From Squalus acanthias (Eukaryota), in NCBI GenBank assembly GCA_030390025.1, contig CM059443.1, positions 48,670,001 through 48,734,000 of the forward strand: a stretch of 64,000 nucleotides of DNA. The letters are read 5' to 3'. The notes beneath the pieces were generated by a model. It was not told where the DNA came from. It searched no databases and was given only the letters and a program-made list of their open reading frames with translations. Both the position numbers and the translations under genes were made by a program. This document shows, in pieces, positions 6,263 through 62,307 of the stretch; position 1 is the stretch's first letter, and each line of letters starts with the position of its first letter.

Positions 6263-7036
6263 TTAGCGGAACATTGGGAGAAGATTTCTCCGCACACAAT
6301 CCTGCGCTTCAAGCAGCCTCAGTGTTACAATCTGTGAAAACACACTTGCATTCGAGGGGGGCCGGTTGCGCACCTGCCGTCCATGGTCCGTGCGGTCTCT
6401 GCCTAGATATCAAGAGAGGAGATCACGTTTGATGGGTTCACTTCCAGTGGGGGACAGATAATGAAAGCGGACTGTCTCGTTACATCAGATAAAGCTCCAG
6501 GAGCTTTAGAACAGACACAGTGTTGGCTGAGAGGATTGTACTGAAAGATTGCAATTACTTACATTTTACTCACTGAATTTCACTTTTGCCTCCATCACTA
6601 AGAATACAGAAAATTAAACATGTGAAGCATCAGTAACATAAGATTCAAACAATAATAAACATCTGTAAATGGATTTGCTATTTTTAACCCCTGGATTTGA
6701 ATCCGTCTCTCTACTCTTCAATTTTCGCTCTCACCATCTCCCATCACTCTCCCTTTCCCTCACTCGCCCTCTATCTTTCCCTCCCTCCTTTCTCTCTCTC
6801 TCTATGTCTGTCTCTCTCACTCTACCCCTCTCTCCATCCCTCCTCCTCTCTCTGGACTGTAAGGGTCATTTAGGAAATGATTTACATTCAGCTTCCTGTG
6901 TCAGCCACACATTAGCCTCCTACAGTTATTAAAGAAATGCAACTGGTAAATGTTTCATTGAATGAGAAAAACTAAACAGAAAGTCTGAATGAAAACTGAG
7001 TGAATCACATCCCTGCCACTACCGATGCTGAGGATC
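6263..7036 (-). CDS. Copy 1 cytoplasmic exons (7023-7036 GSSAS; 6886-6919 EANVWLTQEAE; 6263-6402 CRDRTDHGRQ...LLPMFR*), no tyrosine
   Basis: Homologous to the cytoplasmic exons of copies 2/3 with compatible phases. Donors GTAGTG and GTAAAT are weak. Confidence 0.6.
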
Positions 7037-10000: not shown

Positions 10001-13000
10001 CAAGGCGGGTAAATGGAGTTAGGTCACAGATCAGCAATGATCAAATTGAATGGCGGAACAGGCTCGAGGGGCTGAATGGCCTCCTTCTGTTCCTATGTCG
10101 CTATGGTCACAGTAAATGTGATAAGATCAGAACAATGAATTTAAAAATCATTGTAATAAGTCTGTACTTAAATATAATTTTCCGGATTTAGATCAAACAT
10201 TTTAAAGCTCTTGCTTACCCTTGGCAGCTTGCCGTTTCCTTCGGATTATGCAAAGTGCCCCATCAATGCAAACTAGCACAACCAAGTACAGAACCAAAAC
10301 ACACATACGTATGTCACTGCAGCTGGTGTAAGGACCTGCAGAGGAGAAGCAACATTAAGTTCAGTCTGTGCAATCCCGTGTTATATGTACAGCTGATCAC
10401 ACTGGTTACCTGGGCTGAGGAACAGACATTTCTGGTTAGAATCTGGAATAGTCCAATGGCGAAGGAAGTAAATCAAAGCAACTTATAACGGCTACAAACT
10501 GTACAACTGATCTGGAATCTCTCAGTTTGAATTATTGATATTAAAAGATTCACATCATATTCTAGATTGTATCACTTACTTTGAGTATTTGTACGAGTTA
10601 TGCTGCTGGTCACTGAGGAGATTCCAGATGTTGAGGTGGGGGTGTCTGAAGTCTCTGCACTCGCCTCTGTCACAGTAAGGGAGATGTTTGCTGCAATCTT
10701 CCAGACAGGTTTCCCTGAATCCTGACCGTGGACAGCACAGAGATACCTCCCAGTGTCCACCACATCCGCTGAGTGAATAGTAAGGTTGTGAGACTGGCGT
10801 CTAGCAGTAGGATTGTCTGAGCTTTGGGCAGAGATTCTTTGTGACGACTTTCTGTCCACACAGCAGCGTGTGTTAATTTTTGCCTCATAACCCTCAATGT
10901 GAACAGAGTGCAGACACTTGTTGACGTTTCCAGATCTGATCCAAAACAGAGTGAAAGCGAGGTATTTTGTATTCTCAAACTGGCAGGGTAAAGCCACATT
11001 TGCTCCCTTTGACACTGTCAGCGACCAGGAGTTTTCTTCAGTAGAAAATATTTCATCTGAATCTATAAACAACATTGAAAAGAACCTTTGTTACTAATTA
11101 TTTAGAAGTGCTGTTCCCACATGTTATCCAGCTGTTTGATGTAAGTGTGAGTCTGACTGTAACTAGCTGTATTATCAGCAGTGGAGACAGCAGGCGTGGG
11201 CCAGGGCCAAATCCTTGTTTGGAATATTTGTCTGATTTTCCCACCGTTAGATTAAACATTCCCCAGCTAGAGGCAGATTGTGTAAGAGCAGGAAACACTC
11301 GGGGACTGAGAGCAAGGAGCGATAAGACAGGACAAATAATGAAAGATCGAACACACAAAGGCAAAAGACAGGGGCAGACACTAAAGGACAGAGACAAGGG
11401 GGGGAGACTTCAAACTCGCTTCTCTGTATCTCGATACCTGGGAATTTTATCCACCCCACCCCCCCCCGCCCCGCCCAGATATTTCCCCAATACCTCCCCT
11501 GATACCTCCCCCGATATTGCCCCAGTACACGTACCACTCTGGATTATCACAAAGAACAAGTCGTGGTTTTCACATCCCTCTCCTGACAGTGTGAGCCAGG
11601 ACGGACACTTCGATGATCCTCCTTCTGTGGAATCCTGAGCCGAGCAGGTAAATACCATCGAGTTAAACGTCTTCACATCGAATGTCAGAGACTGAGACTC
11701 CGTTTGTTCTTCATTTAATTTGCATTTTCTACACTCTGGCTTACTCTGCCTGTTTGTCCAATTAGGACTGATATTTTCACAAAATTGCATTTCCTTCTCT
11801 TTATTCTCACATGTATTGTCAATTTCTGCTCCGAGATCAGTGAAGCTGCACAAGGTGACTTCATCCCCAGCACCAGTGGTCACGTTGCACTGCAGAGTGG
11901 TGACATCTCCTGGTCCTCGGGAGAAGAGATAAGTGGATCCTGCAGGGAAAGGGCAGAATCGGATAAAGATAAATAACATTCCACACGGGAAATATCATTA
12001 CACACTCAATGTGACACAAGCCTCTCACAGTAAATGAGCCTAGTTAGACCCCCACCACCCCCTTTACACATTGTGATAGACTGCCCTCCCATTACACAGT
12101 CTGAATCCAGTCCACACCACCCCCTCTCCCTGCCTCCATCACACAGGCCTGGACAGAGATCCCACCCCCACCATAACACATTCTGATCGAGACCTCACCC
12201 CATCCCCATCATAGCCTGAATAGAGACCCCCCACCCTTTCACTGAGCCTGACTACAGTCATACATAGTACATAGGTTGAGGTTATTGGAAGTCAATCATC
12301 TCAGCTCCAGAACATCGCTGCAGGAGTTCCTCAGGGCAGTGTCCAAAGCCCAACCATCTTCAGCTTCTTCATCAATGACCTTCCCTCCATCATGAGGTGA
12401 CACGTGGGACTGTTCACTGATGATTGCACAGTGTTCTGCTCCATTTCCAATTCCTCAGATAATGAAGCAGTCCGTGCCTGCATGCAGCAAGACCTGGACA
12501 ACATCCAGGCTTGGGCTGATAAGTGATAAGTAACAGTCACACCACATAATGACCATCTCCAACAAGAGAGAGCCTAACCACCTGCCCTTGACATTTGATG
12601 GCATTACCATCATCGACTCTCCCACCATTAACATCCCGGGGTCACCATTGACCAGAGACTTAGCTGCAGCAACCACATAAATACTGTGGATACTAGGGCA
12701 GGTCAGAGGCTGGGTACTCTGCGGCAACTGGCTCACCGGCTCCCCAAAACCTTTCCACCACCTATAAGGCACATGTCAGGAGAGTGATGAAATACTCTCC
12801 ACTTACGTGGATGAGTGCAGCTCCAAAAACACTCAGGAAACTCAACACCATCCAGGACAAAGCAGTCCACTTGATCGGCTCCCTATCCGTCCCCTTAAAC
12901 ATTCACTCCCTCCACCACTGGCACACCATGGCTGCAGTGTATACCATCTACATGATAGTACCTCGCCAAGGCTTCTACGGCAGTATCTCCCAAACCCCCG

Positions 13001-14852
13001 ACCTTCACCACCTATAAGGACAAGCGCAGCAGGTGCTTGGGAACACCATCACCTCCAAGTTTCCTTAAAAGTCGCACAACATTCTGACTTGGAAATATAT
13101 TGCTGTTCCTTCATTGTCGCTGGGTCAAAATCCTAGAATTGCCTACCTAACAGCATTGTGGAGAACCTTCACCATTTGGAGTGCAGAAGAAAGGTCAAAC
13201 CCAACTGACCTTCTCAATGGCAACTAGGGATTGGGCAATAAATGCCGGAATTGCCAGTGACACCCACATCCCGAAGAAAGATAAAATAAATATGAAGTAA
13301 TCATCCACTTAATGAGGGAACTTAATTTAAGACGTGGCATTGAATACTGGTTCCTAACTTTCAGGGAGATTATAATAACTGATAATAGGTGTGAGGACAT
13401 TAGTTAGTCCTGTAAAAGGAAAACATATGGGTAAATATTATCTTTTTAGTTGGGGTTTCTGTAGAAGGAGGGAATTAGCTGAAGTTGAATGGTGCAGACC
13501 AGAGAGATATTTATAATTAAAAGTATCACTTGATGGAGAGCAATTATATGTAACAAGAGCCGAATTATTTATAAGGTAATGAAGTAGAGTTATACCAATC
13601 TCGTTAGCCGAATGGAAAAAGAACTCGTTAGTTAGGAAACCAGCTGTTAGCTAAAGTTATCGATAAGGACTCAGTTCAATTAGACTCTCCTTATATGGAG
13701 TTGTTTTTCAATGCAGAAATGTGCAAATTGTCACATATTCGGAGTGAGGGGTAAGTACAAAAAGTGGCAGAGTGTAATCAGTATTTGGATTCGAAGGGGT
13801 TTGATTGGCCTAAAACACTGAACATTAACGCGTTTGAGTCGCCAGCCATCAGCTCTTGTAAGTTCTTGTGGCTCTTTGCTAGAATCAACTCACGGCCTCG
13901 CTCTCCCCACAGTGCTCCTGTATCTTTCACAGCTTCAAATGTTTATCCAATTCTCACTTAAAAGATAGAATCATAGAATCATAGAAAGTTACAGCACGGA
14001 AGCAGGCCATTTCGGCCCATCGTGTCTGCGCCGGCCAACAAAGAGCTATCCAGCCTAATCCCACTTCCCAGCTCTTGGTCCGTAGCCCTGCAGGTTACAG
14101 CATCCCAAGTGCACATCCAAGTACTTTTTAAATGTGGTTAGGGTTTCTGCCTCTACCACCCTTTCAGGCAGTGAGTTCCAGACCCCCACAACCGTCTGGG
14201 TGAAGAAATTCCCATCAAATCCCCTCTAAACCTTCCACCAATTACTTCAAATCTGTGCCCCCTGGTTTTTGACCCCTCTGCTAAGGAAAATAGGTCCTTT
14301 TTGTCCACTTTATCTCGGCCCCTCATCATTTTATACACCTCAATAAGGTCTCCCCTCAGCCTCCTCTGTTCCAAGGAAAACAAACCCAGCCTATCCAGTC
14401 TTTCCTCATAGCTAAGATTCTCTACTCCCGGCAACATCCTTGCAAATCTCCTCTGTACCCTTTCTAGTGCAATTATATCTTTCCTGTAATGTGGTGACCA
14501 GAACTGCACGCAGTACTCTAGCTGAGGCCTAACTAGTGTTTTATACAGTTGATAAGATCCAAAGCTCTCTGCCTCAACCATTCGCTGTGGTAAAGCATTC
14601 TCTGCTCCAACAACATTTCTCCTAACCTCTCTCCTCACTGTCTTAGTGCCATTTTTAAACTGATGACCCATGATTAAACCGTGTTAAAATGCCACAGCAA
14701 GGACTGTGATGCGAGCACATTAAACATATTCACAAGAACACCACTGTTTTATATCCTTATCCTAAGCTGAAGATTAACTGAAAGTATTAATCCTTACCTG
14801 TAACATGTTGGAACAGAAGGAAAAGACCCACAAACACAGCACCGAGCGCCAT
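6263..14852 (-). CDS. IgSF paired-receptor-like gene, copy 1 (putative activating form; about 426 aa, 8 coding exons)
   Basis: Exons 14798-14852, 11535-11939, 10580-11062, 10410-10442, 10219-10335, 7023-7036, 6886-6919 and 6263-6402. All have GT-AG boundaries with compatible phases; total 1281 nt = 427 codons, no internal stop. Encodes signal peptide, two Ig-like domains, TM and basic stop-transfer RRKRQ. AATAAA at 5954-5959 (minus). Confidence 0.8.
7041..10105 (+). mobile_element. Old CR1 with nested younger CR1 (~8369-9816)
   Basis: The decayed RT is interrupted at ggcataac and resumes at ataaccttaaaattagag. The nested copy gives the uninterrupted 470-aa RT ORF and a ctatgtat tail. Confidence 0.9.
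10219..10442 (-). CDS. Copy 1 stalk micro-exon (10410-10442, NSNQKCLFLSP) and TM exon (10219-10335, GPYTSCSDIRMCVLVLYLVVLVCIDGALCIIRRKRQAAK)
   Basis: 33-nt and 117-nt phase 1-1 exons with ttccag/GTAACC and ctcctctgcag/GTAAGC sites; hydrophobic stretch followed by RRKR. Confidence 0.85.
10580..11062 (-). CDS. Copy 1 V-set Ig domain D2 plus Ser/Thr-rich stalk exon
   Basis: G-x-N-V-x-L-P-C, LFWIR, LTIHSADVVDTGRYLC (DxGxYxC V-set motif) and ISLTV. Acceptor gtttatag, donor CAAA|GTAAGT, 483 nt, phase 1-1. Confidence 0.9.
11535..11939 (-). CDS. Copy 1 Ig-like domain D1 exon (Cys-rich, divergent)
   Basis: Acceptor cccctttccctgcag-type tract, donor AGTG|GTACGT, 405 nt, phase 1-1. B-strand-like TLQC and F-strand-like FTC, 9 Cys, no canonical C-strand Trp. 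Confidence 0.8.
12270..13290 (+). mobile_element. Second-family LINE 3' fragment (duplicate at 34100-35120)
   Basis: Same family as 1550-2512. Confidence 0.85.
13965..14670 (-). mobile_element. CR1 3' fragments (duplicate at 35795-36510)
   Basis: atagaatc tail repeats; YKTLVRPQLEYCVQFW. Confidence 0.85.
14798..14852 (-). CDS. Copy 1 leader (signal peptide) exon MALGAVFVGLFLLFQHVT(G)
   Basis: ATG with an in-frame TAG 9 nt upstream, hydrophobic 18-mer and phase-1 donor CAG|GTAAGG. An acceptor ctctttatctcacag before 14918 implies an upstream 5' UTR exon. Confidence 0.85.
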
Positions 14853-19300: not shown

Positions 19301-19325
19301 GAGTACCTGAATCGATGACCCCAGG

Positions 19326-25716: not shown

Positions 25717-25967
25717 TCAGGTTTCCTCCATTTTCGCATAAATAGGATTTTTTTCCATTTTTAACAGGCCAGGTCGTGGATCATCTTCCTCCAGCTGGGA
25801 CTGTGTCACCGCGTCTACCGGGCAGCCTATCAAAGAATAAATCTGCTCATTGGACAAAGCAACGGGATCCTCCTTACTGTCCTCTTTGGGCTGTGATTGG
25901 CCGCCTGGTTTGAGTTCAGTAGCTGAAGAGGTTTCAACCTGCCGTCCATGGTCCGTGTGGTCTCTGC
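25717..25967 (-). CDS. Copy 2 terminal cytoplasmic exon B (RDHTDHGRQ...EQIYSLI...NPIYAKMEET*)
   Basis: Acceptor ctctcttaatatctag and a 251-nt open frame to TGA. Same length and frame in copy 3, with synonymous differences. Absent from the ORF track. Confidence 0.8.
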
Positions 25968-28900
25968 CTAGATATTAAGAGAGGAGATCACGTTTGATGG
26001 GTTCACTTCCAGTGGGGGACAGATAATGAAAGTGGACTGTCTCATTATTTGAGATAAAGGTCCAGGAGCTTTAGAACAGACACAGTGTTGACTGAAAGGA
26101 TTATACTGAAAGATTGCAACGACTTACATTTTACTCCCTGGTTTTCAGTTTTGCCTCCATCACTAGGAAAACAGAAAAATAAACATGTGACTACTGAGTA
26201 ACATAAGATTCAAACAATATTAAACCATTGTAAGTGGAGACTAGGTGAGGTCACTTTCTTCCCAGGGCCTGGATTTGAGTCCAGCCCAGACTGAAATTCT
26301 CTCATTCATTTTCTCTCTCTCTGTCTCTCTCTCCCTCTGACTCTCTGATTGTCTCTCCGTCTCTCTTTCTCTCTGTCTCTTTCATTCTCTCTCTTTCACT
26401 GTCTCTCTCTGCCTGACTCTCTCTCTCTGTCTGTCTATCTCACTGTCTCTCTCACTGTCTCTGTCTCTCTCCATTCTCTCTGTCTCTCTGTCTGTGTCTT
26501 TTCCCTGTCTCTATGTCTGTCTCTCTCCCTGTCTCTGTCTGTCTATCTCACTTCTCTTTCGCTGTCTCCCTGTCTCTCTCCATTCTCTCTGCCTCTGTCT
26601 CAGTCTCTTTGTGTCTGTCATTCCCTCCCTGTCTCTATGTCTGTCTCACTATGTCNNNNNNNNNNNNNNNNNNNNNNNNNNNNNNNNNNNNNNNNNNNNN
26701 NNNNNNNNNNNNNNNNNNNNNNNNNNNNNNNNNNNNNNNNNNNNNNNNNNNNNNNNNNNNNNNNNNNNNNNNNNNNNNNNNNNNNNNNNNNNNNNNNNNN
26801 NNNNNNNNNNNNNNNNNNNNNNNNNNNNNNNNNNNNNNNNTTGTCTCCCTCTCTCTCTCTTTGTCTCTCTCACTGTCTTTGCTGTGTGAGCAGTCCTCTC
26901 TGCAATGAGTTTTCACAGTTTCAATCCAGTTCCTTGCCTAAAACTGCGCATCATTCAGTAAAATATTTGGACTAAATTGATCATTATGGTCAGATAAGCC
27001 AAAATATTGTCCTGAGAAAGTTTAATAAAAATAACTTCACACGGGCACAGTGAAAGGAGTTATTCTGATGTTGGGATAAAGGAGCACTATCAGGTCAGAG
27101 TTCAGAGTGCTTTACAAGGCCTCCAGCCATTCTATACCTGACTTAGAACTGTTCGGTTGTGAGATTGGCTGCACAGCCTGGAAATGTTTTATGCTGGGTG
27201 GTGGAATAGATTAGTACGGCCCTTTAATATTTTAGGATCTGCCAAGTCCAGATTACTAGGAATAAAAGTCCTCTTTCTATATCTCCCTGGTCTCTCTCTC
27301 TGTCTGTCTCTGTCGCAATCTCTGTCTGTCTCTGTCTCTTTGTCTTTCTCTGTCTCTTTCTCTCTAAGGGTCCTTGATGAAATGAATTTGGTCATCTCGA
27401 TCCAGTTTGTAGTTCGTGTGAGCCACAGTACAAAACTACCCCTAAGTTGGCACTTTCACTCAAACAGGCCATGAAGTGTGAGAAATGAAATGTCCGAGCT
27501 CCCTCCTGAGTTTGGAGTTGAGGAGCATTGTTGGGACAGTCCAGAGGGAGCTTTATGCTGCACCTAATCTGGAGTGCTCCAAATGTGACTGTGTGCCCAC
27601 AGTGGAAAAGTAACCCATTTGCCAGCATGGGCTCCCCTCACCTTCATTACATTAACAATCTCCGAACCCTCCGTCCCAAAACAAACCCGTGGTCAGTGTT
27701 GAACGCTGCCGGGGCCGACAGCTGTCACTCTGCTTACCCTTTGACCATTGACTCTTCGATCATAGAATCATAGAAGATAGGAGCAGGAGTAGGCCATTCG
27801 GCCCCTCTTAGCCTGCTCCGCCATTCAATGCGATCATGGCTGATCATCCAAATTCAGTACCCTGTCCCTGCTTTCTCCCCATATCCCTTTAGCCTTAAGA
27901 AATATATCGAACTCCTTCTTGAATATATTTAATGAATTGGCCTCTACTGCCTTCTGTGGCAGAGAATTCCACAGGTTCACCACTCTCTGGGTGAAGAAAT
28001 TCCTCTTCATTTCTTTCCTAAATGGCTTACCCCTTATCCTTAGACTGTGACCCCTGGTTCTGGACTCCCCGACCATCGGGAACATCCTTCCTGCATCTAG
28101 TTTGTCCTGTCCTGTCAGAATTTTATAAGTTTCAATGAGATCCCCTCTCATTCTTCTAAACTCCAGCGAGTATAAGTCCAATTGACCCAATCTCTCTTCA
28201 TACGTCATTCCTGCCATCCCAGGTATCAGCCTTGTGAATCTTCGCTGAACTTCTTCCACGGCAAGAACATCCTTCCTCAGATAAGGCAACCAAAACTGCA
28301 CACAGTACTCAAGGTGTCGTCTCACCAAGGCCCTGTACAACTGCAGCAAGACATCCTTGTTCCTGTACTCAAACCCTCTCGCTATGAAGGCCAACATACC
28401 ATTTGCCTTCTTAACCGCCTGCTGCACCTGCATGCTTACCTTCAGCGACTGGTGCACAAGGACACCCAGGTCTCGTTGCACTTCCTCTTCTCCCAATCTA
28501 TTGCCATTCAGATAATAATCTGCCTTTCTGTTTTTGACACCAAAGTGGATAACCTCGCATTTATCCACGTTCTATTGCATCTGCCACGCTTCTGCCCAAT
28601 CACCCAACCTGTCCAAATCATCCTGGAGTTTCTCGGCATCCTCCTCACAGCACACACGCCCACCCAGTTTTGTGTCGTCTGCAAACTTGGAGATATTACA
28701 TCTAGTTCCCTTGTCTAGATCATTAATATATATTGTGAATAGCTGGGGTCCAAGGACCAATCCCTGCGGTACCCCACTAATCACTGCCTGCCACTCGGAA
28801 AAAGACCCGTTTATTCCAACTCTTTGCTTTCTGTCTGCCAACCAGTTCTCTATCCAAGTCAATACCTTGCCCCCAATCCCATGTGCCTTAACTTTACACG

Positions 28901-31900
28901 CTAATCTCTTATGCGGGACCTTATCAAAAGCCTTTTGGAAGTCCAAATACACCACATCCACTGGTTCTCCCTTATCTATTTTACCAGTTACATCCTCAAA
29001 AAATTCCAGTCGATTAGTCAAGCATGATTTACCTTTTGTAAATCCATGTTGACTTTGTCCGATCCTGTCACTGTTTTCAAGTGCTCAGCTATTACATCTT
29101 TTACATCTTGAATAATGGACTCTAGCATTTTCCCCACTACCGATGTCTGTAATTCCCTGTTTTCTCTCTACCACCCTTTTTGAATAGTGGGGTAACATTA
29201 GCTACCCTCCAATCCATGGGTACTGTTCCAGATTCCATCGAATGTTTGAAGATGATCAGCAATGCATCTACTATTTCTAGGGCCACTTCCTTAAGTACCC
29301 TAGGATGTAGATTATCAGGCCCTGGGGATTTATCGGCCTTCAATCCCTTCAATTTCCCTAACACCATTTCCCTACAAATACTGATTTCTTTCAGTTCCTC
29401 CCTTTCATCAGACCCTATGTTCCCCAACATCTCTGGGAGGTTATTTGTGTCCTCCTTTGTGAAGACAGAACCAAATTATGTATTTAATTGGTCTGACATT
29501 TCTTTGTTCCCCATTATAAGTTCCCCTGATTCTGACTGCAAGGGACCTACGCTTGACTTCACCAATCTTTTCCTCTTCACATATCTATAAAAGCTTTTAC
29601 AGTCAGTTTTTATGTTCCCTGTAAGCTTACTCTCATATTCTATTTTCCCCTTCTTAATTAATCCCTTTGTCCTCCTTTGTTGAATCTTAAACTGCTCCCA
29701 ATCCTCAGGGTTACTGCTTTTTCTGGCCAATTTATATGCCCTCTCCTTGGATCTTATCCTATCCCTAATTTCCCTTGTTAGCCACAGTTGAGTCACCCTT
29801 TTTGTTTTATTCTTATGCCAAACTGGGATGAACAAATTCTGTAGTTCGTCCATGCGGTCTTTGAATGTTTGCCATTGCCTATCCACCGTCAACCCTTTGA
29901 GTGACATTCCCCAATCAATCCTACCCAACTCACACCTCATACCATCGTAGTTTCCTTTATTTAAATTCAGGACCCTAGTCTCTGAGTCAACTACTTCACT
30001 CTCCATCCTAATGAAGAATTCTATCATATTATGATCGCTCTGACCCAAGGGGCCTCACACAACAAGATTGCTAATTAATCCTTTCTCATTGCATAATACC
30101 CAGTCTAAGATGGCCTGATCTCTGGTTGGTTCCTCGACATATTGGTCCAGGAAACCATCCCGTAAACACTCCAGGAATTCCTCCTCCATAGTATTGTTAC
30201 TAATTTGGTTAGCCCAATCTATATGTAGATTAAAGTCACCCATGATGACTGCTGTGCCATTATTGCACGCTTCTCTAATTTCCCTTTTAATGCCATCCCC
30301 AACCTCCGCATTACTGTTTGGAGGTCTTTTTATCACTCCCACTAACGTTTTCTGCCCCTTGTTATTTCTCAGTTCAACTCATACAGATTCCACATCATCA
30401 GAGCTAATATCCTTCCTTTCAATTGTGTTAATCCCCTCTTTAACCAGCAATGCTACCCCACCTCCCTTTCCTTTTTGCCTGTCTTTCCTGAATATTGAGT
30501 ACCCTGGATGTTGAGTTCCCAGCCTTGGCCACCCTGGAGCCATGTTTCGGTAATCCCAATCAAATCATATTCGTTTACCTGTATTTGCGCAGCTAATTCA
30601 TCCACCTTGTTCCGAATGCTCCTTGCATTAAGACACAAAGCCTTCAGGCTTGTTTTTTTAACGCTCTTAGACCTATTAGAATTAGTATTTACTGTGGCCA
30701 TGTTTGATTTAACACATTGCTTTCTCTGACTGCCACTTTTGTTTTTCTCCTTCCTATCTTTTGCTTTTATCCTTGTTTCCCTTTCCTCTGTCTCCCTGCT
30801 CAGGTTCCCAACCCCCTGCCATTTTAGTTTAAACCCCCTCCCAGAGCATGAGCAAACACTCCCCCTAGGACATCGGTCCCGGCCCTGCCCAGGTGTAGAC
30901 CGTCCGGTTTGTACTGGTCCCACCTCCCCCAGAACCAGTTCCAATGCCCCAGGAATTTGAATCCCTCCCCCTTGCACCATTCCTCTAGCCACGTATTCAT
31001 TTGAAATATCCTTCTATTTCTACTCTGACTAGCACGTGGCACTGGTAGCAATCCTGAGATTACTACCTTTGAGTTCCTATTTTTTAATTTACCTCCTAAC
31101 TCCCTATATTCTGCTTTTAGGACCTCATCCCGTTTTTTACCTATATCGTTGTTACCTATGTGCACCACGACAATTGGCTGTTCAGCCGCCCCTTCCAAAA
31201 TGCTCTGTAGCCACTCTGAGACACACTTGACCCTTGCACCAGGGAGGCAACATACCATCCTGGAGTCTCGTTTGCGGCTGCAGAAACGCCTATCTATTCC
31301 CCTTACAATAGAATCCCCTATCACTATAGCTCTCCCACTCTTTTTCCTCCCATCCTGTGCAGCAGAACCACCTACGGTGCTAGGAAGTTGGCTGCTGCTG
31401 TCTTCCCCTGATAAGCCATCTCCCTCAACAATATCCAAAGCGGTATATCTGTTTGAGAGGGGGATGGCCACAGGGGACCCCTGCACTACCTGCCTGCGCC
31501 TATTACTCTGCCTGGTGGTCACCCATTCCCTTCCAAACAGTACACATGCTCTGTAGAGTCAGGCTTTGGGCCAGTGCTCTCCATTCCTTCACCAGGCCTT
31601 GGCTGGCTCGATGGCGTTGGAACTCTCGTCACCGAGTACGCAACATGGTCGTTGTCATCGCTCTGATCCCTTCTGGGAACCACAGAGTACGGGAAACCTA
31701 GACAGAAGGACGAGTAGACGATGTGTGCTTTTAGTTTCAACTCTCAAAGGGACAGGCTCGGAAGAGCTGGGCAGTAATTCTAGTCACTTACATTCAGCCA
31801 CCTGTGTCAGCTGCACATCACCAGCCCTACAGTTAGTAAAGAAAAGCAACCTGTAAATGTTCCATGAAATGAGGAAAACTATACAGAAAGTCTGCCCGAA

Positions 31901-47940: not shown

Positions 47941-48191
47941 TCAGGTTTCCTCCATTTTAGCATAAATAGGATTTTCTTCCATTTTTAACGGGCCAGGTCG
48001 TGGATCATCTTCCTCCAGCTGGGACTGTGTTACCGCGTCTACCGGGCAGCCTATCAAAGAATAAATCTGCTCATTGGACAAAGCAACGGGATCCTCCTTA
48101 CTGTCCTCTTTGGGCTGTGATTGGCCGTCTGGTTTGAGTTCAGCAGCTGAAGAGGTTTCAACCTGCCGTCCATGGTCCGTGTGGTCTCTGC
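47941..48191 (-). CDS. Copy 3 terminal cytoplasmic exon B (QIYSLI, PIYAKM)
   Basis: 251-nt open frame conserved with copy 2. Confidence 0.8.
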
Positions 48192-51100
48192 CTAGATATT
48201 AAGAGAGGAGATCACGTTTGATGGGTTCACTTCCAGTGGGGGACAGATAATGAAAGTGGACTGTCTCGTTACTTGAGATAAAGGTCCAGGAGCTTTAGAA
48301 CAGAAACAGTGTTGACTGAGAGGATTATACTGAAAGATTGCAACGACTTACATTTTACTCCCTGGATTTCAGTTTTGTCTCCATCACTAAGAAAACAGAA
48401 AATTAAAACATGTGAATAATGAGTAACATAAGATTCAAACAATATCAAACCATTGTAAGTGGAGACTAGATTAGCTCACTTTCTCCCCAGAGCCTGGATT
48501 TCAGTCCAGCCCAGACTGAAATTCTCTCATTCATTTTCTCTCTCTCTGTCTCTCTCTCTCTCTCTCTGTCTCTCCGACTCTCGTTCTCCCTNNNNNNNNN
48601 NNNNNNNNNNNNNNNNNNNNNNNNNNNNNNNNNNNNNNNNNNNNNNNNNNNNNNNNNNNNNNNNNNNNNNNNNNNNNNNNNNNNNNNNNNNNNNNNNNNN
48701 NNNNNNNNNNNNNNNNNNNNNNNNNNNNCGTCTGTGTCTCTCACTGTCTCTGTCTCTCTCTCTGTCTCTCTCTCTCTGTCTCTCTCTCTTTGTGTCTCTG
48801 TCTCTCTGTCATTGTCTCTCTGTCCCTATCTCTTTCTCTCTTGCTTTGTCTCTCTCTCTCTTTCTATCTTTGCTATGTGAGCAGTCCTCTCTACAATGAG
48901 TTTTCACAGTCCCAATCCAATTCCTTGCCTAAAACTGTCCATCATTCAGTAAAATATTTGGACGAAATTGATCATTATCGTCAAAATACGCCAAAATATT
49001 GTCCTGACAAAGTGTAAAAGAAAATAACTTCACACGGGCACAGTGAAAGGAGCTATTCTGATATTGGGATAAAGGAGCACTATCAGGTCAGAGGGCAGAG
49101 TGATTTACACGGCCTCCAGCCATTCTATACCTGACTTAGAACTGTTCGGTTGTGAGATTGGCTGCACAACCTGGAAATGTTTTGTGCTGGGTGGTGGAAT
49201 AGATTAGTACGGCCCTTTCATATTTTAGGATCTGTTCTCAAATCAAGTCCAGAATATTGGGAATAAAAGTCTCTCTCTGTGCCTCTATTACTGTCTGTCT
49301 GTCCCTGTCTCTTTGTCTTTCTCTGTCTCTTACTCTCGAAGGGTCCTTGATGAAATAAGTTTAGTCATCTCGTTCCAGTTTGTAGCTCGTGTGAGCCACA
49401 GTACAAAACTACCGCTAAATTAGCACTTTCACTCAAACAGGCCATGAGGTGTGAGAAGTGAAATGTCCGAGCTCCCTCCTGAGTTTGGAGTTGAGGAGCA
49501 TTGTTGGGACAGTCCAGAGGGAGCTTTACGCTGCACCTAATCTGGAGTGCTCCAAATGATACTGTGTGGCCACAGTGGAAAAGTAATCCATTTGCAGAGT
49601 GGGCTCCCCTCACCTTCATTACATTAACAATCTCCGAACCCTCCATCCCAAAACAAACCCATGGTCAGTGTTGAACGTTGCCGGGGCCGACAGCTGTCAC
49701 TCTGCTTACCCTTTGACCATTGACTCTTCGATCAAACAGTACACATGCTCTGTAGAGTCAGACTTTGGGCCAGTGCTCTCCATTCCTTCACCAGGCCTTG
49801 GCTGGCTCGATGGCGTTGGAACTCTCGTCACCGAGTACGCAACATGGTCGTTGTCATCGCTCTGATCCCTTCTGGGAACCACAGAGTACGGGAAACCTAG
49901 ACAGAAGGACGAGTAGACGATGTGTGCTTTTAGTTTCAACTCTCAAAGGGACAGGCTTGGAAGAGCTGGGCAGTAATTCTAGTCACTTACATTCAGCCAC
50001 CTGTGTCAGCTGCACATCACCAGCCCTACAGTTCGTAAAGAAAAGCAACCTGTAAATGTCCCATTAAATGAGGAAAACTATACAGAAAGTCTGCCCGAAA
50101 ACTGAACAAATCCCATCCCTACCTGGGTCCTGGTGCTGAGGATCCTTCACAACACATGCCATAAGATTGGAAAGATAAATTTAAAAGTCTTTGTAAGGAG
50201 TCTGCACTTACAATTTTCTAGATTTAGAGCAAACATTTTAAAGCTCTTGCTTACCTTTGGCAGCTTGTCGTTTCCTTTGGATTATGCAAAGTGCCCCAAC
50301 AATGCAAAGTACCCCAACAATGCAAATGATCACAACCGCACACGCTATGGCTACTTTCACAGGTGTGGCAGTGTCTGGGCCTGCAGAGGAGAAGCAACAT
50401 TAAGTTCAGTCTGTGCAATCCCATGTTATATGTACAGCTGATCACACTGGTTACCTGGGCTGAGGAACAGACATTTCCGGTTAGAATCTGGAAAAGTGCA
50501 ATGGCGAAGAAAGGAAATCGAACCAACTTTTAATGGGTACAAACTGGACAACTGATCTGGAATCTATCAACTTTAATTTTTTTTATTCATTCATGGGATG
50601 TGGGCGTCATTGACAAGGCCAACATTTATTGCCCATCCCTAATTGCCCTTGAGAAGGTGGTGGTGAGCTGCTTTCTTGAACCGCTGCAGTCCATGTGGTG
50701 AAGTTACTCCCACAGTGCTGTTAGGGAAGGAGTCCCAGGATTGTGAGCCAGCGACGATGAAGGATCGGCGATGTACTTCTGAGTCAGGATGGTGTGTGAC
50801 TTGGAGGGCAACTTGGAGATGATGGTGTTCCCATGAGCCTGCTGCCCTGTCTTTCTAGGTGGTAGAGGTCACGGGTTTGGGAGGTGCTGCCGAAGAAGCT
50901 TTGGCGAGTTGCTGCAGTGCATCTTGTAGCTGGTACACACTGCAGCCAAGGTACGCCAGTGGTGGAGGGAGTGAATGTTTAAGATGTGGATGGGGTGCCA
51001 ATCAAGCAGGCTGCTTTGTCCTGGATGGTGTCGAGTGTCTTCAGTGTTGTTGGAACTGCACTCATCGAGGCAAGTGGAGAGTATTCCATCACACTCCTTA

Positions 51101-54100
51101 CTTGTGCCTTGTAGATGGTGGAAAGGCTTTGGTGAGTAAGGAGGTGAGACACTCGCTGCAGAATACCTAGCCTCTGACCTACTGTTGTTGCCACAGTATT
51201 TATGTGGCTGTTCCAGTTACGTTTCTGGTCAATAGTGACCCCCAGGATGTTGATGGTGGGGGATTCGGCAATGGTAATGCCATTGAATGTTAAGGGGAGG
51301 TGGTTACACTCTCTCTTGTTGGAGATGGTCATTGCCTGGCACTTATGTGGCGCGAATGTTACTTGCCACTTATCAGCCCAAGCCTGAATGTTGTTCAGGT
51401 CTTGCTGCATGCAGACACGGACTGCTTCATTATCTGAGGAGTTGCGAATGGAACTGAACACTGTGCAGTCATCAGCAAACATCCCCACTTCTGTCCTTTT
51501 GATGGAGGGAAGGTCATTGATGAAGCAGCTGAAGATAGTTGGGCCTAGGACACTGCCCTGAGGAACTTTTGCAGCAATGTCCTAAGGCTGAGATGATTGG
51601 CCTCCAACAACCAGAACCACCTTCCTTTGTGATAGGTATGACTCCAGCCAGTGGAGAGTTTACCCCCTGATTCCATTGCCTTCAATTTTACTAAGGTTCC
51701 TTGATGCCACACTCGGTCAAATGCTGCCTTAATGTCAAGGGCAGTCACTCTCACCTCCCCTCTGGAATTCAGCTTTTGTCCATGTTTGGACCAAAATTGT
51801 AATGAGGTCTGGAGCCAAGTGGTTCTAGCAGAACCCAAACTGAGCATCAGTGAGCAGGTTATTGGTGAGTAAGTGCCACTTAATAGTACTGTCGACAATA
51901 CCATCCATCACTTTGCTGATGATTGAGAGTAGACTGATGGCGCGGGAATTGACCGTTTCTGATTTATACTACTTTTTGAAGACCGGACATACCTGGGCAA
52001 TTTTCCACTTTGTCGGGTAGATGCCAGTGTTGTAGCTGTACTGGAACAGCTTGGCTAGAGGCACGGCTAGTTCTGCAGCACAAGCCTTCAGCACGACAGC
52101 CGGGATGTTGTCGGGGCTCATAGCCTTTGCTGTATCCAGTGCGCTCAACCGTTTCTTGATAGCACGTGGAGTGAATCAAATTGGCTGAAGACAGGCTTCT
52201 GTGATGGTGGGGACCTCAGGAGGAGGCCGAGATGAATCATCCACTCGCCACTACTGGCTGAAGGTGGTTGCGAACACTTCAGCCTTGTCTTTTGCACTCA
52301 CGTGCTGGGCTCTGACATCATTGAAATGGGGCTGTGCATGGAGCCTGCTCCCGTTAGTTGTTTAATGGTCCACCACCATTCACGATGTGGCAGGACTGCA
52401 GAGCTTTGATCTCATCCATTGGTTGTGGGATCGCTTTACTCTGTCTATAGCATGCTGCTTCTGCTGTTTAGCATGCATGTATTGTAGCTTCACCAGGTTG
52501 GCACCTCATTTTTTGGTACGTCTGCTGCTGTTCCTGGCATGCTCTTCTACACTGCTCATTGAACCGGGGTTGGTCCCCTGGCTTGATGTTAATGGTAGAG
52601 TGAGGGATATGTCGGCCCATGAGGTTACAGATTGTGATGGAGTGCAATTCTGCTGCCGCTGATGGTCCACAGCACCGCATGGATGTCCAGTTTTGAGCAG
52701 CTAGATCTGTTCTGAATCTATCCCATTTAGCACGGTGGTAGTGCCACACAACACGATGGAGGGTGTCCTCAGGATGAAGACGGGTCCTCATCTCCACAAG
52801 GACTGTGCGGTGGTCACTCTTACCAATACTGTCATGGAGAGATGCATCTGCGACAGGTAGATTGGTGAGGACGAGGTCAAGTATGTTTCTCCCTCGTGTT
52901 GGTTCTTTCACCACCCGCCGCTGGCAGCTATGTCCTTCAGGGCTTGGCCAGCTCCGTCAGTAGCGGTGCTACTGAGCCACTCGGTGATGGATATTGAAGT
53001 CGCCCACCCAGAGTACATTCTGTGCCCTTGCTACCCTCAGTGCTTCTTCCAAGTGGTGTTCAACGTGGAGGAGTACTGATTCATCAGCTGAGGGAGGGCG
53101 GAAGGTGGTAATCAGCAGGAGGTTTCCTTGCCCATGTTTGATCTGATGCCATGAGACCTCTTGGGGTCAGGGAGTCAATGTTGAGGACTCCAAGGGCCAC
53201 TCCCTCCAACTATATACCACTGTGCTGCCACCTCTGGTGGGTCTGCCTTGCCTGAGGGACAGGAAATACTTAGGGATGGTGATGGAGGAGCCTGGGACAT
53301 TTCGTGAAAGAATTATTTATATTATTTATATTGAATTATTTATATTAAATGAGTCGCATTGTTTCTAGATTGTATCACTTACTTTGAGTATTTGTACGAG
53401 TTAAGCTGCTGGTCACTGAGGAGAATCCAGATGTTGAGGTGGGGGTGTCTGAAGATTTACCACTGCTCATTACACTGGTTACCTGGGCTGGGGAACATAC
53501 TTTTCTGGTTAGACTCTGGAATAGTGCAATGGCGAAGGAAGTAAATGAAAGCAACTTATAACGGCTAAAAACTGTACAACTGATCTGGAATGTCTCAGTT
53601 TGAATTATTGATATTAAATGATTCACATCATATTCTAGATTGTATCGCTTACTTTGAGTATTTGTACGAGTTAAGCTGCTGGTCACTGAGGAGATTCCAG
53701 ATGTTGAGGTGGGGGTGTCTGAAGTCTCTGCACTCGCCTCTGTCACAGTAAGGGAGATGTTTGCTGCAATCTTCCAGACAGGTTTCCCTGAATCCTGACC
53801 GTGGACAGCACAGAGATACCTCCCAGTGTCCACCACATCCGCTGAGTGAATAGTAAGGTTGTGAGACTGGGGTCTAGCAGTAGGATTGTCTGAGCTTTGG
53901 GCAGAGATTCTTTGTGACGACCTTCTATCCACACAGCAGCGTGAGTTAATTTTTGCCTCCTTTTCCTCAATGTGAACAGAGTGCAGACACTTGGAAACGT
54001 TTCCAGATCTGATCCAAAACAGAGTGAAGGGGAGCTTTTTTGTATTCTCAAACTGGCAGGGTAAAGTCACATTCACTCCCTCTGAGGAGATTTCTTCAGT

Positions 54101-57100
54101 AGAAAATATTTCATCTGAATGTATAAACAACATTTACAAGAACATTTATTAATATAATAATCTTCAGTGCGGTACTTTGTCAAACGATTTCCTAAAGTCC
54201 ATGTACAGTATATTCCCTGCATTCCTCCATTTACCATATCTGTTACCTTCTCGACGGTTTTTCAACCTCAATCATCCTCTTTGAAATCCGTGCCAGCTAC
54301 TTATCACTATTTTCTCTTTATCTATATACATGGTTATTTCATCTTAATAAAGACCCTAAAGTTTTCCCAATGACAGCTATCTGCCCTAAAACCTCCTCTA
54401 ATATCTCCCCAACACCTCCCAATATCTCCTCTAACATCTCACCTTATATCTCCCCTAAAGTCCCGGCAATAACTTCCCCGATACCACCCCATACTTCCCC
54501 TGATATCTCCTCCGATACTTCCCCGATCCCTCCCCCGATATTGCCCCAGTACACGTACCACTCTGGATTATCACAAAGAACAAGTCGTGGTTTTCACATC
54601 CCTCTCCTGACAGTGTAAGCCAGGACGGACACTTCGATGATCCTCCTTCTGTGGAATCCTGAGCCGAGCAGGTAAATACCATCGAGTTAAACATCTTCAC
54701 ATCGAATGTCAAAGACTGAGACTCCATTTGTTCTTCATTTAATTTGCATTTACTAGACTTTGGTTTGCTGGGCCTTTTTCTCAAGTTAGGACTGATGTTT
54801 TCACCAAATTTCCTTTCCTTCTTACATTTTATTTTGTCCATTTCTGCTCCGAGATCAGTGGAGCTGCACAAGGTTACTTCATCCCCAGCACCAGTGGGCA
54901 CGTTGCACTGCAGAGTGGTGACATCTCCTGGTCCTCGGGAGAAGAGATAAGTGGATCCTGCAGGGAAAGGGCAGAATCGGATAGAGATAAATAACATCCA
55001 ACACAGGAAAGATCATTAAACACTCAATGTGACACAAGCCTCTCACAGTAAACGAAGGAATCATACTTTTGGTAATAGGCCAGTTTATTGTTCCTTTCAT
55101 AGACTTCTTTGCCACAGTCTATAAATTAGCATCCCTCTCCATTCTCAGCCTTCTACACTGTTCCAACAAAGCTCAACGTAAGCTCGAGGAACAGCACCTC
55201 ATAGAAGCATAGAAGATAGGAGCAGGAGTAGGCCATTCGGCCCCTCGAGCCTGCTCCGCCATTTAATGAGATCATGGCTGATCATCCAAATTCAGTACCC
55301 TGTCCCTGCTTTCTCCCCATATCCCTTGATCCCTTTAGCCTTAAGAAATATATCTATCTCCTTCTTGAATATATTTAATGAATTGGCCTCAACTGCCTTC
55401 TGTGGTAGAGAATTCCACAGGTTCACCACTCTCTGGGTGAAGAAATTCCTCCTCATCTCAGTCCTAAATGGCTTACCCCTTATCCTTAGACTGTGACCCC
55501 TGTTTCTGGACTCACCCGCCATCGGAAACATCCTTCCTGCATCTAGTCTGTCTAGTCCTGTTAGAATTTTATAAGTTTCAATGAGATCCCTTCTCATTCT
55601 TCTAAACTCTAGCGAATATAAGCCTAATCGACCCAATCTCTCTTCATACGTCATTCCTGCCATCCCAGGTATCAGTCTGGTAAATCTTCGCTGCACTCCC
55701 TCCATGGCAAGAACATCCTTCCTCAGATAAGGCGACCAAAACTGCACACAATACACAATACTCATCTTTCAATTAGGTACTTTACAGCCTTCTGGACTCA
55801 ACATCGAGTTCAACAATTTCAGACCATAATCTCTGCCCCTATTTTTTCAGACAGCAGCTGTTGATGATTCTGCCATCCCCATTTGCAACATTTAACCACT
55901 CCTGCCTTCCACCCTATCACAGACCGTCCCTTTTCTTCTTTCCTCCCCGCCCCTCTTTCCCTGCCCCTGCACCTGGTTAAAATCTGTTACATCTCTAACT
56001 TTTTCCAGTTGTGACGAAGGATCACAGACCTGAAACGCTGACTGTTTCTCTCTCCACGGATGCTGCCTGACCTGCTGAGTGTTTCCAGCATTTTCTGTTT
56101 CTGTGCTGTAAATTAGCATATCCACTTGATGTTACCAATTATTTTTTGTCTAATTACTTCTTCCAAATTGTTTCATTAACGCTTGTTGACAATGTCTATG
56201 TTTTCGGCCTTGTCGAAATGACCAACAATATCCTGTGTGATTCCAATCACAGTGCGTTATCCTTCCTCAACCTCCTCAGCATCTCCAAGGCCCTTGACAC
56301 AGTCAACCTCCGCAAATGCCTCTCCAATGGCCCACCTTTGTGGCACTGCCCGCAAATACATCCAGTCCTATCTGTCGCAGTGTAGCCAGCACATCCTCAG
56401 GAATCGCTCTTCTCCCGTGTCCAATGGTCGCCCCTCGTCCACCCAAGGCTCCATCCTTTCCCTATCCTATATTCCACACATACGTGATGTCTCTCAGGAA
56501 CGTCGTCAAGGAGTCAGCTTCTAAACGTAGCCAAGTCGATACCTCACTTCACCTCTCCATCAATGCCCTCAGTGCTGGACTGTCCGATTTCTTATCTGGC
56601 ATCGGGTTCGGGAAAAACCAGGACTCTCCTCAGCTCAAAGTTGGGAAAGGCTAAGCCATCCCGTTCAGCTCCAGTACACACTGACCCTATTTGACCCTGA
56701 GCTGAACCTCAAACCCATATCCAGCCCACCACCAGATGTCGTGACTTCCCCTCCCAAAGATTGCCTACCTCACCCTCAGTGCTGCTGGAACTCTCCTCCA
56801 CAGCTTCATCTCCTCGACCACTGACATCTCCAATCCTTTCCTCATCGACCTCCTGAGCTTCACCGATAACAGACTCCAACTCAGCCGGAACCCATCACCC
56901 ACATCCTGTCCCACACAGCATCCTAATCACCAATCACTCCTGTCCTCACTGACCTCCCCCAGGCATTGAATTCAAAACTCCCCATTACACTCCTAGGGCA
57001 ATGTCCTAGGCCCACCTATCTTCAGCTGCTTCATCAATGCCCTTCCCTCTATCATAAGGACAGAAGTGGGGATGTTCCCTGATGATTGCAGAGTGTTCAG

Positions 57101-60100: not shown

Positions 60101-62307
60101 TACATCCTCAAAGAACTCTAGTAAATTTGTCAAACACGATTTCTCTTTCATGAAACCATGTTGACTCTGCTTGATTGTATTATGATTTTCTAAATGTCCT
60201 GCTATTCCTTCCTTAATAATGGATTCCAGCATTTTCCCAATGACAGATGTTAGGTTAACTGGCCTATAGTTTCCTGCTTTCTGTCTCCCTCCTTTCTTGA
60301 ATGGGGAAGTTACATTTGGGGTTTTCCAATCCGCTGGGACATCTCCAGAATCCAGGGAATTTTGGTAAATTTTCACCAATGCATCCACTATCTCTGCAGC
60401 CACTTCTTCTAAGACTCTAGGATGCAGGCCATCAGGTCCAGGGGACTTGTCAGCCTTTAGTCCCATTAGTTTGCCTAGTACTTTTTCTCTAGTGATAGTA
60501 ATTGTTTTAAGCTCCTCCCTCCCTATAGCCTGTTCATTATCAATTATTATTGGGCAACTTGAGCATCTGACAGGCACAATTCCCCCTGTAATGGCCCTCA
60601 CAGACTTCACCCAGAAACTCTCCACTCACTGACACAGATGTGTCAGTACTGCAGATCACTATTCCAATAGAGCTCGAATAAACACTGAACCACATCTCCC
60701 AGTCAGACTCGATTGTAACTCAGACATCAGCCGTGTTGGACTGAGGATAGGAGCAGACGTCACTTATCATTTCAGGAACTCAGTCTGTCTGCAGACAGCA
60801 CCCACTACACACAGTCTGTTCAGAATTACCAGCAGCCAAATTACACAGAGACTGGTTACAAACCCCCCATTACACAGTCTGGATAGAGACCCCCCCATTA
60901 CACAGTCTGGATAGAGACCCCCCCCATTACACAGTCTGGATAGAGACCCCCCCCCATTACAGTCTGGATAGAGACCCCCCCCATTACAGTCTGGATAGAG
61001 ACCCCCCCCATTACAGTCTGGATAGAGACCCCCCCCATTACAGTCTGGATAGAGACCCCCCCCATTACACAGTCTGGATAGAGACCCCCCCCATTACAGT
61101 CTGGATAGAGACCCCCCCCATTACACAGTCTGGATAGAGACCCCTACCGCCCCCTCCAATCACAGTGTCAGTTCCCATTTCTTTACAGAAGAATCGTGAA
61201 ATGGGTGGGTCTGTAATGTACAGAAGGACCTGAGCTGCTCCATTTTGCCAGAGTTGCTGAATTCCAGCCCTGGTCCGTGTGGTGTTGTGGATCCCGCCCA
61301 GTGTGGTTTGCACCCTTTACACTTCTCCGCAGTATTTATTGGTGTGAGGCTCGGCTGAGTCATCAACCATAATTGTTACTTTAGAGTTCACAGTGATCGA
61401 GTCTGAGCACAAAATCTTACACAGAATTACATAGAATGTACGGCACAGAAACAGGCCATTCGGCCCAACTGCTCCATGCCGGTGTTAATGCTGCACAGGA
61501 GCCTCATCCCACCCCTCTTCATCAAACCCTGTCAGCAAATCCTTCTCACGCTTCTGAATCTTCCACCATTTAATTCTTAAAGTGAGATATGATTCTGCAG
61601 TAAGCGAACTTGGGATAGGATCAGCGCTGTTCTCGTACTTCATCTCTGCGCTGTTTTAAAACAGGTGTTGAACCAAAGATGTTTGCAGCACTGAAGGAAA
61701 CCGTTCGGCCCATCGTGCCAGTGCTGGCTCTTTGCCAGAGCAAACCCATTGCCCCCCACTCTCCCCACAGCCCTGTATCTTCCTCTGCTTCAAATGTTTT
61801 TCCAGTTTTACTTCAAAAGATGTAAAGGTCTCTGCCTCAACCACCCCGTGTGATAAATTTTTGGGAACGAAGGGAATTAAGGGATATGGGGATAGTGCAG
61901 GAAGGTGGAGTTGAGGTAGAAGATGAGCCAAGATTTTGTTGAATGGCGGAGCAGGCTTGAAGTGCCAAATGGCCTGCTCCAGCTCCTATTTCTTATGTAA
62001 AACAACCCTCTGTGTGAAGAATTTTTTCCTAACCTGTCTCCTCACTCTCAGTGGCACTTTTGAACTGACGCCCCATGATTAAACCATGTTAAAATGGCCC
62101 AGCAAGGACTGTGATGCAAGCTCATTAAACGTCCACACGAAAACAGCACTGATATCTTTCAATCCTTATATTTCTCCATTGGGATATAGATAGAAACTGA
62201 TATTTCCAGATAAGAAATATGTTGCAGGTTAACGTAAAATATTAATCCTTACCTGTAGCATGTTGGAACAGAAGGAAAAGACCCACAAACAAAGCACCGA
62301 GCGCCAT
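47941..62307 (-). CDS. IgSF paired-receptor-like gene, copy 3 (Tyr-motif tail, apparently intact; about 521 aa or more depending on stalk exons)
   Basis: Leader 62253-62307, D1 54559-54957, D2 53653-54114, stalk exons 53483-53515 / 53383-53448 / 50455-50487, TM 50255-50380, cytoplasmic 50123-50144 and 49991-50025, exon A 49710-49896, exon B 47941-48187/48191. AATAAA at 46004-46009. Confidence 0.8.
48535..48875. repeat. (TC)n/(TCTG)n tract containing assembly gap 48592-48728
   Basis: Direct; 137 Ns; paralogous to the first gap. Confidence 0.95.
49706..50144 (-). CDS. Copy 3 cytoplasmic exons 50123-50144, 49991-50025 and Tyr exon A 49710-49896 (CFPYSVV...VAYSVT...EHVYCLIEESMVKG)
   Basis: Phases 1-2, 2-1 and 1-2. 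Exon A ends GG|GTAAGC, which is either a donor or GGG TAA stop. Confidence 0.8.
50255..50487 (-). CDS. Copy 3 stalk micro-exon (50455-50487) and TM exon (50255-50380, GPDTATPVKVAIACAVVIICIVGVLCIVGALCIIQRKRQAAK)
   Basis: Canonical splice sites, phase 1-1, hydrophobic core. Confidence 0.85.
50575..53310 (-). mobile_element. Second-family LINE (endonuclease plus RT), in a copy 3 stalk intron
   Basis: EPTRGRNILDLVLTN...SDH endonuclease, ALDIKAAFDRVWH, MFADD; poly-T on plus at 50575. Confidence 0.9.
53653..54114 (-). CDS. Copy 3 V-set D2 plus stalk exon
   Basis: LFWIR and DTGRYLC; acceptor attcag, donor GTAAGC; 462 nt, phase 1-1. Confidence 0.85.
54559..54957 (-). CDS. Copy 3 Ig-like D1 exon
   Basis: Same splice sites, 399 nt, 7 Cys, basic central segment. 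Confidence 0.8.
55130..56100 (+). mobile_element. Penelope-like element 3' end, split by a minus-strand CR1 3' end (55203-55760)
   Basis: Encodes QRKLEEQHLIF..LGTLQPSGLNIEFNNF across the insertion; ctcat is present at both junctions. Confidence 0.75.
56200..58190 (+). mobile_element. Decayed L2-like LINE with nested second-family LINE (56990-58015), itself split by a minus CR1 (57165-57826)
   Basis: Degenerate L2-type RT text; ggacaa at both nested junctions. Confidence 0.65.
58200..58675 (+). mobile_element. tRNA-head Deu-domain SINE (SacSINE1/AmnSINE1-like), near full length
   Basis: A box tggctcagtgg, B box gagttcaagtc, Deu-like core ttttggatgacatattaaaccgaggcccc, tail gaaatgcaagtctttc. 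Confidence 0.8.
58865..60550 (-). mobile_element. CR1 LINE ORF2 3' half
   Basis: ORFs 59020-60625 carry RT motifs; acataaga tail. Confidence 0.9.
60865..61145. repeat. Minisatellite, about 10 copies of a 26-28 bp unit (C)n attac(ac)agtctggatagaga
   Basis: Direct tandem repeats visible. Confidence 0.95.
62253..62307 (-). CDS. Copy 3 leader exon MALGALFVGLFLLFQHAT(G)
   Basis: Paralog of the copy 1/2 leader; donor GTAAGG. Confidence 0.85.

Follow-up and report, generated by a model that had tools for sequence, protein, structure and literature searches.

The window analysed here is a 64,000-nt stretch of the Squalus acanthias genome (GCA_030390025.1, CM059443.1:48,670,001-48,734,000, forward strand). 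It holds three genes of a two-domain immunoglobulin (Ig) superfamily receptor family. All three are on the minus strand and have a leader exon, a D1 exon, a D2 plus stalk exon and a transmembrane (TM) exon, with GT-AG borders in phase 1. The family is real and expressed, and it comes in two types. In copy 1, the TM has an Arg at its start and an Asp near its end, and the tail has no Tyr, in agreement with a sequence-only reading that preceded this work. Copies 2 and 3 have a neutral TM and long tails with Tyr motifs. Transcript evidence comes from contigs of four RNA-like runs of two studies, whose RNA status is a guess, no run being recorded as RNA; the evidence is their spliced joints. The features are as follows (positions in the window).

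14798..14852, minus strand: copy 1 leader exon, joined to D1 in all four RNA-like runs
11535..11939, minus strand: copy 1 D1, degenerate Cys-rich Ig-like, 9 Cys (model and spliced joints)
10580..11062, minus strand: copy 1 D2 (V-set) and Ser/Thr stalk (Pfam and D1 joint)
10219..10335, minus strand: copy 1 charged TM exon (Arg, Tyr, Asp), joints seen on an identical paralogous exon
6886..7036, minus strand: copy 1, two relic tail exons (7036-7023 and 6919-6886), skipped in the transcripts observed
6563..6597, minus strand: copy 1 35-nt tail exon, in a frame that differs from the long form, stop at 6568-6566
6263..6402, minus strand: copy 1 last exon, 3' untranslated region (UTR) in the form that RNA supports, coding solely where the 35-nt exon is left out
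36644..36698, minus strand: copy 2 leader exon (gene model)
33367..33765, minus strand: copy 2 D1 (gene model)
32426..32908, minus strand: copy 2 D2 and stalk, neither AG of the normal acceptor kept, 32881 being the next AG in frame
32056..32181, minus strand: copy 2 neutral TM exon (gene model)
31534..31945, minus strand: copy 2 tail exons 1 and 2 and the 5' part of the Tyr exon (YSVV, YSVT)
27763..31533, minus strand: CR1-type long interspersed element (LINE) within the copy 2 Tyr exon, with an esterase open reading frame (ORF) 1 and a reverse transcriptase ORF2
27738..27762, minus strand: copy 2 Tyr exon, 3' remnant
25717..26162, minus strand: copy 2 final two tail exons (26162-26128 and 25967-25717; YSLI, NPIYAKM)
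62253..62307, minus strand: copy 3 leader exon (gene model)
54559..54957, minus strand: copy 3 D1, 7 Cys, second ectodomain class
53653..54114, minus strand: copy 3 D2 and stalk, second AG (54114) needed
50255..50380, minus strand: copy 3 neutral TM exon (gene model)
49710..50144, minus strand: copy 3 tail exons 1 and 2 and Tyr exon (YSVV, YSVT, YCLI)
47941..48386, minus strand: copy 3 final two tail exons (YSLI, NPIYAKM, stop)

Leader and D1, and D1 and D2, are joined at the predicted borders in 4/4 runs. Most other joints of the window copies are masked by repeats in the run contigs, and the short-form joints were read on a paralogue matching copy 1 in its TM and 35-nt exons. There, 4/4 runs show the stalk-TM and TM-35-nt joints, and 3/4 show the one to the last exon. 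A single 766-nt contig covers all three. The joints are attributable to a copy type, not to an individual copy of the array. The junctions put forward for checking against RNA are thus spliced from leader to D2 and from stalk through charged TM to short tail. In the short form, the TM exon is followed by the 35-nt exon and then by the last exon. Because the observed joints skip the two relic exons, this form stops at 6568-6566 and has 363 residues. Copy 1 had been drawn to end at 6263; coding stops at 6566 in the RNA-supported form, and the exon reaching 6263 is 3' UTR there. The idea that copy 1 is a decayed pseudogene was rejected, since its type is spliced and kept in five other sharks.

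Copy 3 gives an open 524-residue model with five tail Tyr motifs (YSVV, YSVT, YCLI, YSLI and YAKM). The junctions of the long tail are predicted from near-identical RefSeq models of other sharks. Copy 2 is damaged. Its D2 acceptor is mutated at both AGs, and a 3.77-kb CR1-type LINE interrupts its Tyr exon, giving YCLE and then a stop. It can be kept in frame to YSLI and YAKM only via a predicted cryptic acceptor (32881) and a weak predicted cryptic donor (31523). Of the three genes that had been read as spliceable, copy 2 is therefore not cleanly so, and all five Tyr motifs stand in an open model in copy 3 only. After the copy 3 D2 and stalk exon, a duplicate stalk piece with its own donor lies at about 53383-53454, as in several Tyr-type copies. 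Neutral TM exons differ by an 18-nt unit (108, 126 and 144 nt).

D2 has five Cys and belongs to the V-set (Pfam E 8e-8 and 3e-6). D1 contains 9, 9 and 7 Cys in copies 1, 2 and 3, respectively. As had been noticed from the letters, it matches no recognised family: no Pfam match was found below E 0.13, and the best PDB sequence match has E 0.31. D1 relatives show an Ig-like pattern with a B-strand Cys, a C-strand Trp and an F-strand Cys. A model predicted from a 15-row alignment has eight strands at a poor predicted local distance difference test score of 47. A fold search with this model returned only generic beta-sandwiches (best Z 7.8), and a model this poor excludes no family.

A D2 exon search of the 3.7-Gb genome, with 24/24 candidates scored, found 12 full D2 exons and 4 half ones, and a single scaffold carries them all. 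Twelve Tyr exons were found, three of them split by the LINE. The array comprises 16 units, 4 with a charged TM and 12 of the Tyr type, in a repeating higher-order pattern of which the window holds three units. The charged TM exon is identical in all 4 charged copies. Two apparent clusters end at assembly gaps (48,643,406 and 50,528,384) in complementary halves of one LINE, and their gap-facing ends abut within about 6 nt. Two separate clusters were rejected because these ends abut inside one LINE insertion; for the same reason, the clusters are most likely a single array misordered by scaffolding. The half copies, at 48.745, 48.667, 50.462 and 50.385 Mb, retain the last third of D2, the stalk, the neutral TM and the Tyr tail, with repeats upstream. 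They are either pseudogenes or ectodomain-less forms.

A search with D1 retrieved 17 proteins from seven shark genera, none aptly named. Both types are present in Heptranchias, Pristiophorus, Mustelus and Scyliorhinus, and the charged type in Heterodontus. One Heptranchias charged form, misnamed serine-rich adhesin, has a duplicated D1-D2-stalk ectodomain. The sequence-only reading expected annotation to miss the contrast between the types. This is partly so: RefSeq models of both types exist, but they are unnamed or misnamed.

In an ectodomain tree (n=22; two S. acanthias copies omitted, one with a D1 frameshift and one whose D2 was not extracted), sequences cluster by species, with 7 type switches against a shuffled mean of 6.7. 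The S. acanthias copies cluster with squalomorph sharks, and the cartilaginous-fish origin read from the letters is supported. In this species both ectodomain classes occur with both signalling modules. The nearest charged and Tyr-type ectodomains are 92.7-98.4% identical within species and 56-73% identical across species. TM type is kept across species while the ectodomain is homogenised within species. Because ectodomains match within species and diverge between them under a conserved TM type, these alignments argue for concerted evolution of a paired receptor predating the squalomorph/galeomorph split. The shark-specific paired expansion would accordingly be old. The design typical of paired receptors, proposed from three genes, is borne out by an array that combines 4 charged with 12 Tyr-type units: the genes are clustered, the ectodomains are highly similar and homogenised between types, and there are two signalling ends.

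The Arg, the Tyr, and the Cys and Gly flanking the Asp of the charged TM are invariant in 5/5 aligned charged forms. The Asp itself is Asn in Mustelus. The Arg at the TM start is invariant in 6/6 species. In four species, including S. acanthias, the short tail is read from the 35-nt exon in one and the same shifted frame. Since the charged TM exon is alignable with the neutral one, and Asp and Val are one base apart (GTT>GAT), we infer that the charged exon arose inside the family. Crude pairwise ratios of nonsynonymous to synonymous differences (pN/pS), from pairs that are not independent, are 1.06 for D1, 1.22 for D2, and 0.35 and 0.57 for tail exons.

When 1.84 billion representatives were searched with a profile built from 12 shark proteins, 80 matches came up at E <= 0.001, of which 30 were looked up. 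Their named sources include whale shark, sturgeon, gar, eel, herring, catfish, salmonids and lungfish, and from caecilian, salamanders, frogs, turtles, alligator, lizards, kiwi, duck and echidna. Twenty-seven are called uncharacterized or hypothetical, two are unnamed and one is misnamed as an acetylcholine receptor. In the reverse direction, a profile of 35 non-shark members scored 136 bits on D2, 18-25 on D1 and 8.0 on the Tyr exon of the window, with 100 shuffles giving at most 3.5; the last exon (1.1 bits) was not above these shuffles. A D2 tree (72 rows, FastTree, few columns) mostly tracks vertebrate groups. By these comparisons, an unnamed two-domain Ig-superfamily receptor family spans jawed vertebrates. 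No therian member was seen, because no unnamed row of the 72-row D2 tree joins echidna, which suggests a loss in therians. Non-shark tails have a common PY(A/S)V-type motif. The shark Arg-Tyr-Asp TM was found in no non-shark homologue examined. Three frog proteins carry an Arg close to the start of the TM, in one case as NxxR, and their tails are short or truncated; this may be an activating form of independent origin. At least four paralogues occur in Salminus. A Logan protein has a tail homologous to the long form (E 7e-11) and a Cys-rich ectodomain in which D2 is not recognisable; a ray or chimaera relative, or a shuffled gene, is possible.

A PSMA4 exon lies 21 kb past the last gene of the array, and exons of the IRP family lie 190 kb beyond it, IRP1 and IRP2 scoring alike. 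The same scaffold carries MPHOSPH10, two SCAMPs and two long-exon nicotinic acetylcholine receptor (nAChR) genes. This neighbourhood matches the order IREB2-HYKK-PSMA4-CHRNA5 of human 15q25. A setting like the leukocyte receptor complex (LRC) or a major histocompatibility complex (MHC) paralogon, which the sequence-only reading had listed for checking, does not apply: the locus adjoins PSMA4 and is neither LRC- nor MHC-like. The duck homologue is named after an nAChR subunit; this fits adjacency of receptor and nAChR genes but is only a hint.

We favour, with reasonable though not high confidence, the view that this is a receptor family whose long Tyr-tailed and short charged-TM forms, with matched ectodomains, act in sharks as an inhibitory/activating immune receptor pair. 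An immune role as such is probable. The charged form would pair through its TM Arg, and possibly its Asp, with an adaptor bearing an immunoreceptor tyrosine-based activation motif (ITAM), and so activate. Such pairing is likely, and we lean slightly towards FcR-gamma as the partner. FcR-gamma-like and CD3-zeta-like TM exons, so named by inspection, are present in the genome. After Tyr phosphorylation, the long form would dampen signals through several YxxI/V sites and the invariant NPIY, not through a textbook inhibitory motif of the immunoreceptor tyrosine-based kind (ITIM). That this form inhibits is a little more probable than that it does not. NPIY, present in copy 3 and in 6/6 other sharks, would bind a Dok-type adaptor with a phosphotyrosine-binding domain. 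The shark tail shares an NPxY in an ITIM-less long tail with CD200R, for which PMC13613202 describes ITIM-less inhibition by NPLY, Dok2 and RasGAP. Repeated exchange of ectodomain exons would keep the activating form matched to the ligand of the long form, probably including a pathogen product; whether pathogens drive the matching is about an even call.

Several points weigh against this pair. A tail YxxM could recruit PI3K. None of the five copy 3 Tyr motifs fits the consensus of ITIM or of the switch motif ITSM, (S/I/V/L)xYxx(I/V/L) or TxYxx(V/I), as given in PMC12151841, and two of six other sharks have one canonical ITIM. NPxY is found in 0/17 non-shark tails checked. The NxxR Asn is missing from the charged TM, which fits only partly the classical activating FcR TM motif (M/L)Fxx(D/N)TxL, as worded in PMC2413239: copy 1 has L, D and L but no F or T, and D and N alternate in sharks. 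A pN/pS near 1 among young paralogues likewise fits relaxed selection. At least 4 of the 12 full copies are damaged, in addition to the 4 half copies. The long-form tail joints are predicted from RefSeq models, and the runs carry no tissue label, their RNA status being a guess. In the call of an activating versus probably inhibitory cluster, the paired design is supported and the inhibitory half stays presumptive.

The main rival to inhibition holds that the pair is real but that the long tail works in co-stimulation or as a scaffold, with Src-type sites and PI3K engaged via YxxM, so that the signs are not opposite. The five non-consensus motifs of copy 3 agree with it, as do acidic residues before three of them and the final YAKM. 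However, YxxM is retained in some sharks only, and canonical ITIM or ITSM motifs occur in those two of six sharks and in 7/17 non-shark species. Moreover, ectodomain matching to an adaptor-type partner is typical of an inhibitory and activating pair (PMC5112662). We thus regard a co-stimulatory tail as unlikely, though it deserves attention. Somewhat less likely still, the short form could act as a decoy that does not signal or as a partner for dimerisation, with polar TM residues that serve homodimerisation or heterodimerisation with the long form. Neither known FcR-gamma motif is fully matched, the TM contains several Cys, and its exon, paralogous to the neutral one, has an Asp that stems from a single base change. 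Against this, the TM-start Arg has stayed invariant despite turnover of the adjacent ectodomain, and the short Tyr-free tail is conserved. A diverged branch of a described family (MDIR/CD300/pIgR or CD200R), or a family named in literature elsewhere, is improbable: weak pIgR matches (E 0.007, on par with Fab and T-cell receptor) and a D2 extra-Cys spacing and NPxY reminiscent of CD200R speak for it, but the 30 representatives bear no such name, no CD300, TREM, TIM or CD200R chain is among the best 60 of 382 PDB matches, and the locus adjoins PSMA4.

CD200R has two Ig domains in the order V then C2, with an extra Cys in the V domain, paired forms, a TM Lys in the activating form, and linkage to CD200. 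In the shark family, the V domain is membrane-proximal, the activating form would use Arg/Asp and not Lys, and NPxY is shark-only within the family. CD200R membership was ruled out on the V-set nature of D2, the missing Lys in the charged TM and the neighbouring PSMA4. NITRs have an N-terminal V domain with a J-like FGxG, then an I domain. NITR membership was ruled out, D1 not being V-set and D2 having no FGxG. Membership of the CD28/CTLA4/PD-1 group was ruled out by the two domains in place of a single V; Atlas leads scored below 0.9, and PSMA4, HYKK, IREB2 and CHRNA are not among the CD28-family synteny markers in the available text of PMC11599192.

With LRC-type and Xenopus XFL NxxR receptors (PMC2413239, PMC4536121), the shark family shares an Arg at the TM N-terminal end with a short Tyr-free tail in one type, a neutral TM with a YxxL/I/V tail in the other, and the mixing of both types within one cluster. 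In contrast, Ser or Thr, not Asn, stands three residues before the shark Arg (6/6 species), and an Asp is present in addition. TM and tail are on separate exons, those of XFL being on one exon (PMC2413239). The shark charged TM exon also differs in being a paralogue of the family's own neutral exon, and the ectodomain is degenerate Ig plus V, not C2-type. Membership of the NxxR type was ruled out despite the N-terminal Arg, since the Asn is missing and the tail is on a separate exon. CEACAM paired receptors of Xenopus and mammals have opposite-type ectodomains matched by gene conversion and diverged between species (PMC5112662). The shark family shares this mutual adjustment of opposite types with divergence across species, but no sequence or locus relation was found, and activating CEACAMs, as described there, have their own ITAM-like tail. 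With skate MDIR and CD300/pIgR, the shark family shares multigene activating and inhibitory Ig receptors in cartilaginous fish (PMC3031540). No specific likeness beyond a generic V-set was detected, in searches that did not cover MDIR sequences. The sequence-only reading had named a clear one-to-one match to a described family as a refutation; none of the 30 representatives looked up bears a fitting family name. No description of the family came up in searches of the open literature, subscription journals being outside coverage.

Systems of this kind are known; what appears undescribed is the family, with its locus and its signalling ends. Our most far-reaching proposal is tentative and somewhat less probable than not. 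A checkpoint receptor as old as jawed vertebrates would lie beside PSMA4, kept from sharks to monotremes and lost in therians. Sharks would have made an activating counterpart from its own TM exon, arriving independently at the FcR-gamma Arg solution, and gene conversion would have matched the pair since before the squalomorph/galeomorph split, implying a long-standing pathogen ligand. With these genes, the ancestral immune toolkit of jawed vertebrates gains an unnamed receptor family. Single- or few-copy homologues in the tractable Xenopus, axolotl and salmonids make ligand, expression and knockout testable. The shark array would illustrate how a receptor's own TM exon can give rise to an activating partner that then remains matched over a very long time, and the oldest lineage with adaptive immunity becomes a place to test the counterbalance model of paired receptors. 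If the therian loss is true, placental and marsupial mammals gave up a regulatory pathway.

Around the array, HYKK was not detected with PF01636, and the gene on the 5' side was not found among 150 of 1,575 candidate flank ORFs scanned. A genome-wide V-set scan (150 of 2,831 candidates scored) found nothing else near the array. The nAChR-like exons at 53.2-53.5 Mb were rejected as a fixed neighbour, being broken copies: three near-identical broken nicotinic receptor exons, CHRNA5-like by inspection, lie at 53.18, 53.50 and 53.51 Mb. An apparently young endogenous retrovirus lies beyond the assembly gap, at 50.54-50.55 Mb, marked by gag-, pol- and env-like frames that are long and open.

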